Part shown: positions 13,080 to 55,855 of the stretch, piece by piece
How the letters are laid out: each line of letters begins with the position of its first letter
How positions within the stretch are numbered: the stretch's first letter is position 1
Origin: a phage
Sequence record: PZ452598.1
Direction: 5' to 3' (one strand)
DNA: 64,000 nt
Program-made: the position numbers and the translations under genes
The notes under the pieces: generated by a model
The model's input: the letters and a program-made list of their open reading frames with translations, nothing else
Database searches by the model: none
Told to the model about the DNA's origin: nothing

Positions 13080-14095
13080 CATTATGTTCAGATAAGGTCG
13101 TTAATCTTACCCCGGAATTATATCCAGCTGCATGTCACCATGCAGAGCAGACTATATCTCCAACTTGTTAAAGCAAGTTGTCTATCGTTTCGAGTCACTT
13201 GACCCTACTCCCCAAAGGGATAGTCGTTAGGCATTTATGTAGAACCAATTCCATTTATCAGATTTTACACGATAAGTAACTAATCCAGACGAAATTTTAA
13301 AATGTCTAGCTGCATCTGCTGCACAATCAAAAATAACCCCATCACATGAAATCTTTTTAATATTACTAGGCTTTTTACCTTTCATCTTTTCTGATATTTT
13401 AGATTTAGTTATGTCTGAATGCTTATGATTAAAGAATGAATTATTTTCACCTGAACGATTTCTGCATTTACTACAAGTATAAGCAGAAGTTTGTATGCGA
13501 ACACCGCACTTACAAAACTTATGGGTTTCTGGATTCCAACGCCCGTTTTTACTTCCGGGTTTACTGTAAAGAGCTTTCCGACCATCAGGTCCAAGTTTAA
13601 GCATCTTAGCTTTAACAGTTTCAGAACGTTTCTTAATAATTTCTTCTTTTAATGGATGCGTAGAACATGTATCACCAAACGTTGCATCAGCAATATTGTA
13701 TCCATTAATTTTAGAATTAAGCTCTTTAATCCAAAAATTTTCTCGTTCAATAATCAAATCTTTCTCATATGGAATTTCTTCCAAAATAGAACATTCAAAC
13801 ACATTACCATGTTTGTTAAAAGACCTCTGAAGTTTTATAGAAGAATGGCATCCTTTTTCTAAATCTTTAAAATGCCTCTTCCATCTCTTTTCAAAATCTT
13901 TAGCACTTCCTACATATACTTTATTGTTTAAAGTATTTTTAATCTGATAAATTCCGCTTTTCATAAATACCTCTTTAAATATAGAAGTATTTATTAAAGG
14001 GCAGTCCTACAATTTAGCACGGGATTGTCTACTAGAGAGGTTCCCCGTTTAGATAGATTACAAGTATAAGTCACCTTATACTCAGGCCTCAATTA
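13080..14095 (-). mobile_element. group I self-splicing intron in td (1016 nt)
   Basis: 5' junction ...UUGGGU|UAAUUGAGGCCUGAGUAUAAGG and 3' end ...AACAUAAUG| read directly; length matches T4 td intron. Confidence 0.92.
13227..13964 (-). CDS. I-TevI: I-TevI GIY-YIG intron homing endonuclease (245 aa)
   Basis: ORF track 245 aa inside td intron; N-terminal GIYQIKNTLNNKVYVGSAKDFEKRWKRH. Confidence 0.93.
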   Translation of the reverse strand: MKSGIYQIKNTLNNKVYVGSAKDFEKRWKRHFKDLEKGCHSSIKLQRSFNKHGNVFECSILEEIPYEKDLIIERENFWIKELNSKINGYNIADATFGDTCSTHPLKEEIIKKRSETVKAKMLKLGPDGRKALYSKPGSKNGRWNPETHKFCKCGVRIQTSAYTCSKCRNRSGENNSFFNHKHSDITKSKISEKMKGKKPSNIKKISCDGVIFDCAADAARHFKISSGLVTYRVKSDKWNWFYINA

Positions 14096-29753: not shown

Positions 29754-30410
29754 ATGGCAGCACCTAGAATATCATTTTCGCCCTCTGATATTCTATTTGG
29801 TGTTCTAGATCGCTTGTTCAAAGATAACGCTACCGGGAAGGTTCTTGCTTCCCGGGTAGCTGTCGTAATTCTTTTGTTTATAATGGCGATTGTTTGGTAT
29901 AGGGGAGATAGTTTCTTTGAGTACTATAAGCAATCAAAGTATGAAACATACAGTGAAATTATTGAAAAGGAAAGAACTGCACGCTTTGAATCTGTCGCCC
30001 TGGAACAACTCCAGATAGTTCATATATCATCTGAGGCAGACTTTAGTGCGGTGTATTCTTTCCGCCCTAAAAACTTAAACTATTTTGTTGATATTATAGC
30101 ATACGAAGGAAAATTACCTTCAACAATAAGTGAAAAATCACTTGGAGGATATCCTGTTGATAAAACTATGGATGAATATACAGTTCATTTAAATGGACGT
30201 CATTATTATTCCAACTCAAAATTTGCTTTTTTACCAACTAAAAAGCCTACTCCCGAAATAAACTACATGTACAGTTGTCCATATTTTAATTTGGATAATA
30301 TCTATGCTGGAACGATAACCATGTACTGGTATAGAAATGATCATATAAGTAATGACCGCCTTGAATCAATATGTGCTCAGGCGGCCAGAATATTAGGAAG
30401 GGCTAAATAA
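29754..30410 (+). CDS. t: holin (218 aa)
   Basis: ORF track 218 aa; N-terminal transmembrane segment; T4 T length. Confidence 0.9.
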   Translation: MAAPRISFSPSDILFGVLDRLFKDNATGKVLASRVAVVILLFIMAIVWYRGDSFFEYYKQSKYETYSEIIEKERTARFESVALEQLQIVHISSEADFSAVYSFRPKNLNYFVDIIAYEGKLPSTISEKSLGGYPVDKTMDEYTVHLNGRHYYSNSKFAFLPTKKPTPEINYMYSCPYFNLDNIYAGTITMYWYRNDHISNDRLESICAQAARILGRAK

Positions 30411-53020: not shown

Positions 53021-53510
53021 AATTATGTTTGTTCTTCAGATAATAAAGTTTAAAGATTTCTTCCGCATTCATTCCAAGGCCAACAAACATATTTAATACG
53101 AAATGAAATATATCCACAAGCTCAAATTTAATTTCGAGCTGGTCTTCGGGGGACATTTCATCAATGCGTTTTTCTTGCGCTTCAATATAACGTGCTTTCC
53201 ATTTTTTCCATACAGCAGAAGCTTCTTTTTCACCACGTGACATTTCACCAAGAGAAGTCAGAAGTTCGCGGAATTCATCATCAATACAGTCTTTTTGTTC
53301 ACGCATCCAAGAAACAACATCACCGGCAGTTTCTAATTTATCTGGATGATAGCAGTATTCGCGGACATTAGCCAAACGAATCTGTAAAGACCGCTGCATA
53401 TCAAGCATAACTTGCAGCGGATCTTTTTCATCACCGAGAATATCCCAGTATTCATTTTGAGCTTTATCAACACCTTCGATCAAATGAGCACATTCATTAA
53501 AGTGAGCCAT
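52995..53510 (-). CDS. 56: gp56 dCTPase/dUTPase (171 aa)
   Basis: ORF track 176 aa trimmed to MAHFNECAHL... Confidence 0.82.
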   Translation of the reverse strand: MAHFNECAHLIEGVDKAQNEYWDILGDEKDPLQVMLDMQRSLQIRLANVREYCYHPDKLETAGDVVSWMREQKDCIDDEFRELLTSLGEMSRGEKEASAVWKKWKARYIEAQEKRIDEMSPEDQLEIKFELVDIFHFVLNMFVGLGMNAEEIFKLYYLKNKHNFERQDNGY

Positions 53511-53570
53511 TAGTTTTCCTTTCAATTCATTAATAAGTTAAATAATTATATCATTTGAGTATGTAAGCAA

Positions 53571-54359
<789 letters not shown>

Positions 54360-54462
54360 TCATTTATTGCAGCAAAAATGAATTATACAATTCTTCATCA
54401 TATGTATTTGATAGTAATACTAACACGTTTTGCGATAAATATTAATTTAAAGGAGGATATAT

Positions 54463-54663
54463 ATGGTACAAAAATTAATGGCACTTGTTAATGCCATAAA
54501 AGGTAATAAGAAACGTATAGCTTTTACTATTTCTGCTATGGTAGGAATTTTACTCTGGAACTTTATTTTATCACCTGTTGCAATTGCACATGGTGTTAAT
54601 ATTCCAGTAGTTACTCTTGATACATTCGTAGATTTAGCATTTGCTTTAGTTGGGTTAATTTAA
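54463..54663 (+). CDS. small hydrophobic protein on the opposite strand to flanking genes (66 aa)
   Basis: ORF track 66 aa; strong SD AAAGGAGG 6 nt before ATG; 3' end overlaps gene 61 stop by 4 nt. Confidence 0.4.
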   Translation: MVQKLMALVNAIKGNKKRIAFTISAMVGILLWNFILSPVAIAHGVNIPVVTLDTFVDLAFALVGLI

Positions 54664-55688
54664 ATCTTAGCATATTTAGATAGCCGCATTTTAGCCATTA
54701 ACCCCTGGGCAATATTATTTTTCATATATTCCATAATTTGTTCAGGGGTTGCACCTTCCTTTCTAATCATATCATTAACATCTTTTGATTTCCAGGGAGA
54801 TTTATCCCAAAACATAACCCTTTCTCCTGCATCAACTAATTTAGTCATTCGTTTAATAGTGTCAGGGTGACGAGGTTCATTATCTAAGACCCACACACGT
54901 CTATCTTTAAATGGAACAACTTCTAGGTCTAATTGACCGCCCGTAATAGCTATACCATTTTCAATAAAAAGTGAATCTATAGGTCCTTCTAGAACATATA
55001 CATCACCATCTTTAACTCGTTCGACTCCATAGATTTTTGTTGCCTCAGGATAAGCTTTGATGGTGATATATTTTTGAGGAGCATCTTTCTTTAATGCACG
55101 TCCTTGAAAAGACTCAGCTTTTCCATTAGCATTATAAATTGGAATAACAAGACGAGGCTCAGAAATTTCCTTTTTGTATGTTCCCGGTGCTATGCTATTA
55201 ACTAATTTAGGCCATTCGGTTGTAAACCAAAGATATTTCCATTTATCCTTTGGAATACAACGAGCTTTTACGTATTTTATAATTGGATGGTCTTCCGCCA
55301 GTTTATCTAATCTAACACATGACGGAAGAGATTTAATTATTTTCTTCTCGGGTTGTTTAGGAAGTTCTTTAGGTTTTTCTATTGGACGACTTTTACCTTT
55401 TTCTTTTCTTATTTCAAAGATATACTCACGATATAAATCGGGTTCAAACTCCTTTAAATATATTCCGATTGGTGCATGATAGTTACAGTTATAACAATGA
55501 ATATTTCCTTCATTATTATCACCATAATACCATCCACGGGCTTTATTCTGGTCGGTTTTTGAATCTCCACAAACAGGGCATCTAAACCGTAATTTAAAAG
55601 TTGAACTATTATTTACTTGTGTGAATTTAGGTAAATGAGCTAATGCACGGTATGCAAACTCATTATCAATCCAAGGTATTGATGACAT
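54660..55688 (-). CDS. 61: gp61 DNA primase (342 aa)
   Basis: ORF track 342 aa; N-terminal zinc ribbon CPVCGDS...CYNC and TOPRIM. Confidence 0.93.
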   Translation of the reverse strand: MSSIPWIDNEFAYRALAHLPKFTQVNNSSTFKLRFRCPVCGDSKTDQNKARGWYYGDNNEGNIHCYNCNYHAPIGIYLKEFEPDLYREYIFEIRKEKGKSRPIEKPKELPKQPEKKIIKSLPSCVRLDKLAEDHPIIKYVKARCIPKDKWKYLWFTTEWPKLVNSIAPGTYKKEISEPRLVIPIYNANGKAESFQGRALKKDAPQKYITIKAYPEATKIYGVERVKDGDVYVLEGPIDSLFIENGIAITGGQLDLEVVPFKDRRVWVLDNEPRHPDTIKRMTKLVDAGERVMFWDKSPWKSKDVNDMIRKEGATPEQIMEYMKNNIAQGLMAKMRLSKYAKI

Positions 55689-55690
55689 TT

Positions 55691-55855
55691 TTACTCTTCT
55701 TTTTCTTTAGATTCCTCTTTTTTCTTTTTAGGAATCTGTTCAGGACCTTTATTTACTACAGCGCCTGATGTTGTTCCAGTAGAGATATTTTCAGGATTAC
55801 CACCTGAATCTCCAGCGACCATATCTTCTTTGATAAATTCTTTAAATGTTTTCAT
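55691..55855 (-). CDS. small hypothetical protein (54 aa, 61.1 position)
   Basis: hand-translated MKTFKEFIKEDMVAGDSGGNPEN... Confidence 0.4.
   Translation of the reverse strand: MKTFKEFIKEDMVAGDSGGNPENISTGTTSGAVVNKGPEQIPKKKKEESKEKEE

Follow-up and report, generated by a model that had tools for sequence, protein, structure and literature searches.

Comparative data strongly support the plus-strand reading frame dam.1, which lies beside gene 61 of phage T4, as a genuine protein-coding gene under purifying selection. Taking the explanation as a whole, we consider it quite probable that this frame is a real gene whose product is a late, small inner-membrane protein with a predicted N-in/C-out orientation. 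The coding status is decided by conservation and purifying selection, and the expression and topology of the product are predicted from signals ahead of the start codon, from hydropathy and charge, and from a structural model.

The dam.1 reading frame and its annotation

The DNA analysed (the window) is a stretch of 64,000 nucleotides from phage T4. T4T (HM137666) and several further T4 records match positions 54300-54720 at 100% identity; the reference AF158101 / NC_000866 matches them at 99.8%. Within this interval the plus strand carries a frame of 66 codons, with its ATG at 54463 and its TAA stop at 54661-54663, which encodes a protein of 66 amino acids (MVQKLMALVNAIKGNKKRIAFTISAMVGILLWNFILSPVAIAHGVNIPVVTLDTFVDLAFALVGLI). 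The main features of the locus are as follows.

53571-54350, minus strand: dam (DNA adenine methyltransferase), context
54434-54441, plus strand: GATAAATA, T4 late-promoter-like box, a 7/8 match to TATAAATA, 21 nt ahead of the ATG
54449-54456, plus strand: Shine-Dalgarno sequence AAAGGAGG, 6 nt (ATATAT) ahead of the ATG, read from the sequence
54463-54663, plus strand: dam.1 coding sequence, 66 amino acids and stop (ORF list, T4T annotation, PHROG 2024, dN/dS 0.08-0.2)
54660-54663, both strands: TTAA, the 4-nt tail-to-tail stop overlap of dam.1 and gene 61 (sequence and ORF list)
54660-55688, minus strand: gene 61 (DNA primase), convergent neighbour, context

An earlier note on this DNA had described a plus-strand frame of 66 amino acids within a minus-strand block, a near-perfect Shine-Dalgarno sequence 6 nt from the ATG, an upstream match to ATAAATA of the late-promoter box and a 4-nt overlap with the gene 61 stop, and each of these is borne out at the positions listed above. 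The TTAA at 54660-54663 provides the stop codons of both genes. The neighbours segF, 56, dam, 61, 61.1, 61.2 and sp are without exception on the minus strand, and the six-frame ORF list holds no minus-strand ORF of at least 30 amino acids in 54351-54659.

A length of 66 amino acids is by itself not beyond chance, because the window contains 136 ATG-initiated ORFs of at least 60 amino acids in six frames, and antisense ORFs inside gene 61 reach 101 amino acids. The start signals of dam.1 do exceed chance expectation. With both strands of the 64 kb counted, the arrangement AGGAGG-N4-8-ATG is found at only two sites, one belonging to the holin gene t and the other to dam.1, and no structure is predicted for the initiation region of dam.1 (54441-54475; 0 kcal/mol).

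At the level of annotation dam.1 is already known, and hundreds of related phages carry it labelled as a hypothetical protein. T4T HM137666 annotates exactly this coding sequence as dam.1 (T4Tp032, ADJ39749.1, 'hypothetical protein'); it is the same gene, alike in sequence, position and orientation and with no difference, and the protein matches ADJ39749.1 exactly (UniRef name 'Uncharacterized protein dam.1'). In AF158101 / NC_000866 the interval carries no annotation, yet the frame is intact there with a single difference, A25T. It is because this reference annotation omits dam.1 that the earlier note could not place the frame in T4. The T2 orthologue is annotated as 'similar to RB69ORF029w; RB32030w', and the entries for the annotated orthologues RB32ORF030w and RB69ORF029w give no function. 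The protein also matches PHROG 2024 (function unknown) with an E-value of 1.5e-31, residues 2-66 aligning with positions 1-65 of the 65-position profile. In the literature on dam.1 and its homologues we found no transcript, ribosome-occupancy, proteomic, genetic or functional data.

Searches with the protein gave no meaningful match in Pfam, NCBIfam or PADLOC. The sole NCBIfam match, to a P13 porin, is noise (E 0.025, with a score of 14 bits where the cutoff is 100). A profile search of the PDB returned weak matches, all with E of at least 0.056, to nicotinic receptor transmembrane segments and YejA, which we take to reflect hydrophobic composition, and Foldseek against BFVD found family members only. 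There is no paralogue of dam.1 within the 64-kb window. The T6 record AP018814 has the label 'putative head morphogenesis protein' here and the T2 record AP018813 has similar ones, all of them unsupported and automatic; we reject them because AP018814 calls the gene at the place of the dCTPase (gene 56) 'ferredoxin' and tiny ORFs 'terminase'.

Conservation and selection across the Tevenvirinae

Using tblastn, 696 phage records match the protein, and 687 of them cover at least 80% of it in one piece; identity is at least 90% in Tequatroviruses and about 54% in Mosigviruses. More divergent queries extend the family to 943 records, and it is also present in phages of Klebsiella, Salmonella, Citrobacter and Raoultella. 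Loci were inspected in Tequatrovirus (T4, T2), Mosigvirus (JS09), Gaprivervirus (TH15), Kanagawavirus (ZX14, PEi20), Jiaodavirus (Mineola), Gelderlandvirus (UTK0003) and Dhakavirus (ESCO10), and homologues were found at the same position in all seven of these Tevenvirinae genera. The TH15 record is unannotated and its locus was placed by the tblastn match alone, while the PEi20 homologue, of 65 amino acids, is likewise unannotated. The earlier note had suggested following the ORF and its Shine-Dalgarno sequence across T4-type genomes, and both are conserved: the ORF is intact in 687 of the 696 records and GGAGG is kept in all homologous loci.

At every locus with an identifiable primase gene, the small ORF faces the 3' end of that gene tail-to-tail from the other strand. 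The 4-nt stop overlap recurs in JS09, UTK0003 and PEi20, whereas the overlap with the primase gene is 24 nt in ZX14 and a gap of 18 nt separates the two in Mineola. None of the loci examined in Mosigvirus, Jiaodavirus and Gelderlandvirus has dam. Because the ORF is kept at these dam-less loci, dam.1 is linked to gene 61, at its 3' end, and not to dam, so that the placement between dam and 61 given in the earlier note holds for gene 61 but not, across these three genera, for dam.

Nei-Gojobori dN/dS values for the close pairs T4/T2, T4/L010, T4/L011, JS09/L012 and JS09/L013 are 0.08-0.20, and variable sites are mostly third codon positions (6/2/11 and 6/0/13). In comparisons between genera 25-55% of residues are retained although synonymous sites have reached saturation. 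In an alignment of 20 diverse members M1, W32, N33, P38, G44 and G64 are invariant, A40 and P48 are nearly so, and position 53 is acidic in every member. The T4 protein fits the pattern W-N-[FY]-x4-P-x5-G-x3-P-x4-[DE] in a protein of 60-70 amino acids (W32, N33, F34, P38, G44, P48, D53).

When 1.84 billion representatives were searched exhaustively with phmmer, and in a profile search, the matches were only phage proteins of 56-73 amino acids and spurious repeat proteins, the latter being three long proteins from phmmer that score through many repeats. Outside the Tevenvirinae the ORF is absent beside the primase gene in Krischvirus, Slopekvirus, Pseudotevenvirus RB43, Gualtarvirus and the Acinetobacter Hadassahvirus, because a same-strand gene there overlaps the primase gene or begins within a few bases of it. 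By its distribution, the family is thus a Tevenvirinae-specific accessory gene encoding small proteins of 60-70 amino acids.

Two records, T4_7t1 and ESCO10, have a frameshifted ORF, which may reflect either assembly errors or a dispensable gene. T4_7t1 (OL964745), an evolved clone, has lost 4 nt and 2 nt within TA repeats, and its dam gene is split as well; here the disruption is probably an assembly artefact and not proof of dispensability.

Signals for late expression and for the opposing strand

A NATAAATA box and GGAGG precede the start in 8 of 9 lineages, in flanking sequence that is not alignable between genera. The box reads GATAAATA in T4 and T2, AATAAATA in Mosigvirus and Dhakavirus, CATAAATA in TH15 and PEi20, and perfect TATAAATA in ZX14; Mineola has both GATAAATA and CATAAATA, and UTK0003, with TATTAAATA, is the exception. 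In T2, JS09, TH15, ZX14, PEi20, ESCO10 and Mineola 12-33 nt separate the box from the start codon that follows it. The T4 box is without the first T of TATAAATA, this base being G in T4 and A, C or T in other genera. Across the window the ATAAATA heptamer is rarer than expected (21 occurrences against 39 +/- 6), a scarcity which fits avoidance of the signal where it is unwanted.

The layout is that of established late genes. Genes 34, 36, t and soc, recognised in the window by their sequences, have TATAAATA, then 17-34 nt including a Shine-Dalgarno sequence, then ATG, and the I-TevI ORF, recognised in the same way, has the variant AATAAATA upstream. Like t, soc, 34 and 36, dam.1 is on the plus strand and shares the order of box, 12-34 nt with a Shine-Dalgarno sequence, and ATG; gene t is closest to it in spacing and Shine-Dalgarno sequence (TATAAATA, 17 nt, ATG, with AGGAGG). 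Unlike the canonical T4 late genes, dam.1 has a box starting with G and stands alone in an early minus-strand block. No plus-strand sigma-70-like promoter was found near dam.1, and inspection by eye of the region upstream gave no properly spaced match to a middle (MotA) promoter. No convincing plus-strand terminator follows dam.1 (fold against shuffled sequence, z -0.25). SA20RB carries an annotated plus-strand terminator at the end of the ORF, but in T4 shuffled versions of the sequence at this point fold just as well.

Late and efficient expression of dam.1, as predicted from these signals, is the best inference. The earlier note's reading of a genuine late plus-strand gene within an early minus-strand block stands as regards coding, and as regards late expression it has comparative support, from the box and Shine-Dalgarno sequence in 8 of 9 lineages. 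The gene is probably its own transcription unit, which gp55-RNA polymerase would read late in infection from the variant box GATAAATA, and the unstructured and very strong Shine-Dalgarno site would then allow efficient translation.

The same interval also carries two minus-strand signals.

54478-54497, minus strand: terminator-like hairpin, ATGGCATTAACAAGTGCCAT then TAATTTTTGT, for transcripts leaving gene 61 (dam.1 codons 6-12)
54417-54421 (-10) and 54440-54445 (-35), minus strand: putative early dam promoter P(E)17.40 (X01416 annotation)

The records of fPS-65 and SA20RB annotate the hairpin (-8.9 kcal/mol, z -1.85) as a terminator. Both T4 and T2 have it, and there is a comparable one in UTK0003, but the homologues from Mosigvirus, Gaprivervirus, Kanagawavirus and Jiaodavirus showed none. 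Since the homologues in these four genera keep the ORF, the hairpin cannot account for its conservation. P(E)17.40 adjoins and partly overlaps the late box of dam.1. Late plus-strand RNA is expected to run antisense into gene 61 because there is no convincing plus-strand terminator after dam.1, and early 61/dam transcripts should in turn be antisense to dam.1; both might have effects on regulation.

The predicted membrane protein, competing explanations and possible roles

The earlier note had predicted a membrane-embedded product, and this is supported by both AlphaFold and hydropathy. In the AlphaFold2 model, built with a 20-sequence alignment and with a mean pLDDT of 74, residues 2-12, 16-42 and 52-63 are helical and residues 43-51 form a loop; the best 19-residue hydropathy window has a mean Kyte-Doolittle value of 2.0. 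The protein divides into three segments.

54466-54516, plus strand: residues 2-18, predicted to be cytoplasmic, with an amphipathic helix (2-12) and, after it, the basic cluster KGNKKR (AlphaFold, charge)
54508-54588, plus strand: residues 16-42, predicted transmembrane helix of 27 residues with the invariant W32, N33 and P38 (AlphaFold pLDDT 77-82, hydropathy)
54589-54660, plus strand: residues 43-66, predicted to lie in the periplasm or at the membrane interface, with the loop HGVNIPVVT and a short acidic/hydrophobic helix (52-63) ending in G64

Five K/R residues precede the hydrophobic core in T4 and 4-6 in other genera, compared with 0-1 after it; the segment after the core is neutral to net negative, and in T4 it has no K/R. 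From this K/R distribution the positive-inside rule predicts a cytoplasmic N-terminus, a single transmembrane helix and a periplasmic tail. The product is likely to insert in the inner membrane in this way, with its basic N-terminus in the cytoplasm, one spanning helix and an acidic/hydrophobic tail of about 24 residues in the periplasm. The C-terminal helix of 12 residues is, in the model, too short to span the bilayer. The T4 C-terminal segment is hydrophobic (mean Kyte-Doolittle 2.0 over 20 residues), and it is possible that it forms a re-entrant or second membrane segment, giving a hairpin with both ends cytoplasmic. The loop carries the invariant G44 and near-invariant P48. The Trp-Asn pair in the middle of the transmembrane helix, together with Pro38, may form a polar or kinked face of the kind that mediates helix-helix association.

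A chance ORF in a non-coding spacer between dam and 61, conserved for the dam promoter, the gene 61 terminator or other minus-strand signals, would fit the abundance of frames of this size in an AT-rich genome, the hairpin and putative promoter in or beside the ORF and its omission from the reference T4 annotation. We regard this as extremely improbable, and the comparative data essentially refute it: the frame is open in about 99% of the 696 records and in seven genera, at 25-55% amino acid identity with synonymous sites saturated, the dN/dS values are low, the ORF persists in the homologues in which the hairpin was not found, and the dam-less Mosigvirus, Jiaodavirus and Gelderlandvirus loci still carry it. 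Function could instead lie in the RNA, with sense/antisense pairing silencing primase and dam mRNA late, or dam.1 early, and the peptide being secondary. All genera examined keep gene 61 and the ORF tail-to-tail, the lack of a convincing plus-strand terminator should let late RNA reach antisense into gene 61, and with the T4/T2 hairpin in codons 6-12 gene 61 transcripts would be complementary to nearly the whole dam.1 coding sequence. This too appears quite improbable, as the amino acids are under purifying selection, with invariant residues throughout the transmembrane helix, and the very strong Shine-Dalgarno sequence is conserved, which an RNA-only function would not preserve. RNA and protein roles of dam.1 are not mutually exclusive. 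The product of dam.1 may or may not be a type I toxin-like hydrophobic peptide under antisense control: its architecture in the AlphaFold model, a small peptide with a single transmembrane helix, fits, and gene 61/dam transcripts should be antisense to it.

The T-even group is known for lysis inhibition, and dam.1 could be a lysis protein of the holin, pinholin or antiholin kind, acting either by making the inner membrane permeable or by adjusting when the T holin and lysis inhibition take effect. It has at least one predicted transmembrane domain in a small protein, as holins do, and at about 65-70 amino acids, membrane-embedded and with probable late expression, it is comparable to class II or pinholin-size holins. 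The holin gene t is the closest match to its box and Shine-Dalgarno sequence, the family occurs in the Tevenvirinae only, and UniRef labels the OE5505 homologue (A0A482MZV5) 'Holin'. That label has no visible evidence behind it, however, and in NCBI this homologue is a hypothetical protein; dam.1 matches no holin family of Pfam, even with E values up to 1 allowed, and none of NCBIfam. Holins typically have a charged hydrophilic C-terminal tail as a hallmark, whereas dam.1 ends in the hydrophobic ...DLAFALVGLI, with 0-1 K/R after the transmembrane helix, and AlphaFold gives it one full-length transmembrane helix and a 12-residue helix, not two transmembrane domains. No lysis gene adjoins it, the neighbours being dam and primase. 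T4 already has the T holin, and t mutants do not lyse. Among the heavily screened r (rapid-lysis) mutants (rI, rII, rIII, rIV/sp, rV/t) we know of none between dam and 61. A lysis protein of this kind is improbable, and the best reading is that dam.1 is not a canonical holin.

If dam.1 is a small inner-membrane protein expressed late, as we prefer, its function is a guess, because Pfam, NCBIfam, PADLOC, PDB and BFVD gave no homology to any characterised protein. To our knowledge, neither essential amber/ts genes nor r mutants of T4 map between dam and 61, which speaks against a role that is essential or critical for lysis inhibition. Our tentative guess, which could well be wrong, is a non-essential accessory factor, in which the W32-N33...P38 face would bind either the protein itself or another inner-membrane protein late in infection. 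Such a factor would resemble small membrane-protein modulators, not a hole-forming holin. AcrZ/MgrB-type single-pass peptides, T4 Imm and RI are small inner-membrane modulators, and by analogy dam.1 shares with them one helix, a length of under 100 amino acids and a basic cytoplasmic N-terminus. The conserved polar and Pro residues of its helix, which could mediate helix-helix binding, are a further likeness. However, no sequence or fold relationship to these modulators was detected, and Imm and RI differ from dam.1 both in architecture and in timing, being expressed early or at early and late times.

A stronger reading, in which dam.1 is an overlooked, strongly translated, Tevenvirinae-specific late inner-membrane protein with a real role in the late envelope, is unlikely. 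That role might lie in lysis timing or inhibition, in protection against superinfection or lysis from without, or in a host membrane target, and the convergent primase/dam transcripts might control expression of dam.1 through sense/antisense pairing. The gene would then have been missed since the reference T4 annotation behind most omics and screening omits it.

T4 is among the most studied viruses, yet NC_000866 / AF158101 lacks the conserved gene dam.1, and transcriptomic, proteomic and CRISPRi screens that use the reference annotation therefore skip it. From its sequence, trypsin would release a single usable peptide (LMALVNAIK) and a hydrophobic fragment of 48 residues, so that failure to see the protein in a tryptic proteome would be weak evidence. 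Adding dam.1 to working annotations is justified because of its purifying selection, its conserved late-type signals and its restriction to the Tevenvirinae. As things stand, dam.1 is one more conserved hypothetical small membrane protein, and the useful points are its omission from the T4 reference and the strong comparative case for a late promoter and purifying selection. If it is true that dam.1 acts in lysis control or envelope defence, it would be a new component for a classic system.

The interval between dam and dam.1

In T2 and in many other Tequatroviruses, dam is separated from dam.1 by an insertion of about 540 bp, which is not present in T4 and whose insertion point falls on the T4 map between window positions 54351 and about 54430. 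An ORF is encoded in the insertion:

1565-2110 of the T2 locus (L003), minus strand in T2: T2_31, 181 aa, belonging to PHROG 8706, which has no assigned function

Comparison of T2_31 with Pfam gave a weak match to the DpnII restriction endonuclease, which lies below threshold (E 0.0096; score 15.7 bits, cutoff 23). The DpnII endonuclease is specific for GATC, the sequence methylated by Dam, and the gene encoding T2_31 directly adjoins that of this methylase.

A short ORF also occupies this part of the T4 sequence, in another frame from dam.1:

54378-54491, plus strand: 37-aa ORF overlapping the start of dam.1

The ORF at 54378-54491 lacks a Shine-Dalgarno sequence, and in T2 the region that holds it is replaced by the insertion. 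This reading frame has most likely arisen by chance.

Homologues and their annotation

The window is identical across 54300-54720 to T4T (HM137666), in which dam.1 is annotated. Relative to the reference T4 record (AF158101) there are nine differences in 3.4 kb, at positions within 53389-55779 of the window, including a cluster within dam (53932, 53934 and 53935) and a change at 54535 which results in A25T in Dam.1.

In ESCO10 (Dhakavirus; L015, about 1966-2165) an apparent deletion of 1 nt from a run of G breaks the dam.1 homologue in two, and the record leaves it unannotated. An intact homologue is likewise unannotated in PEi20, where it occupies a 212-nt annotation gap after the primase gene:

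1917-2114 of the PEi20 locus (L022), minus strand: intact dam.1 homologue, 65 aa

In the evolved T4 clone T4_7t1 (OL964745), dam.1 is truncated by deletions of 4 nt and 2 nt in TA repeats, and dam is likewise split. The deletions in dam.1 are probably assembly errors, or they may be a signal of dispensability. In a metagenomic member of the family (P0034, 61 aa), nearly all the departures from T4 Dam.1 are A to V, T to I, S to F, P to L and H to Y changes, all of which correspond to C to T transitions; instead of a natural variant, this protein looks like the product of assembling DNA that had been bisulfite-converted or deaminated.

The T6 record (AP018814) names its dam.1 homologue a 'putative head morphogenesis protein', which we reject. 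This record contains other clearly erroneous product names, all carried over from PHASTER-type hits: 'ferredoxin' is given to the gene that stands where dCTPase (gene 56) is expected, and 'terminase large subunit' to small ORFs. Comparable labels lie beneath the match in the T2 record (AP018813).

Promoter-like, ribosome-binding and terminator-like signals

The late-promoter core ATAAATA is strongly depleted across the window, with 21 occurrences against 39 +/- 6 in shuffled sequences (at least 21 in all of 100 shuffles). Only two sites in the 64 kb have AGGAGG placed 4-8 nt before an ATG, those of holin gene t (ATG at 29754) and dam.1. A further late-type box, with a first base other than T, was seen elsewhere:

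13988-13995, minus strand: variant late-type box AATAAATA, 23 nt upstream of an I-TevI-like ORF
13964 (start), minus strand: I-TevI-like ORF, 245 aa, beginning MKSGIYQIKNTLNNKVYVGS and preceded by the box and a Shine-Dalgarno sequence

Within dam.1 itself lies a structure read from the opposite strand:

54478-54497, minus strand: terminator-like hairpin for gene 61 transcripts, within dam.1 codons 6-12

This hairpin occurs in T4 and T2, and was not found in the dam.1 homologues of Mosigvirus, Gaprivervirus, Kanagawavirus or Jiaodavirus. On this distribution, the hairpin within dam.1 looks like a lineage-specific, dual-use sequence.
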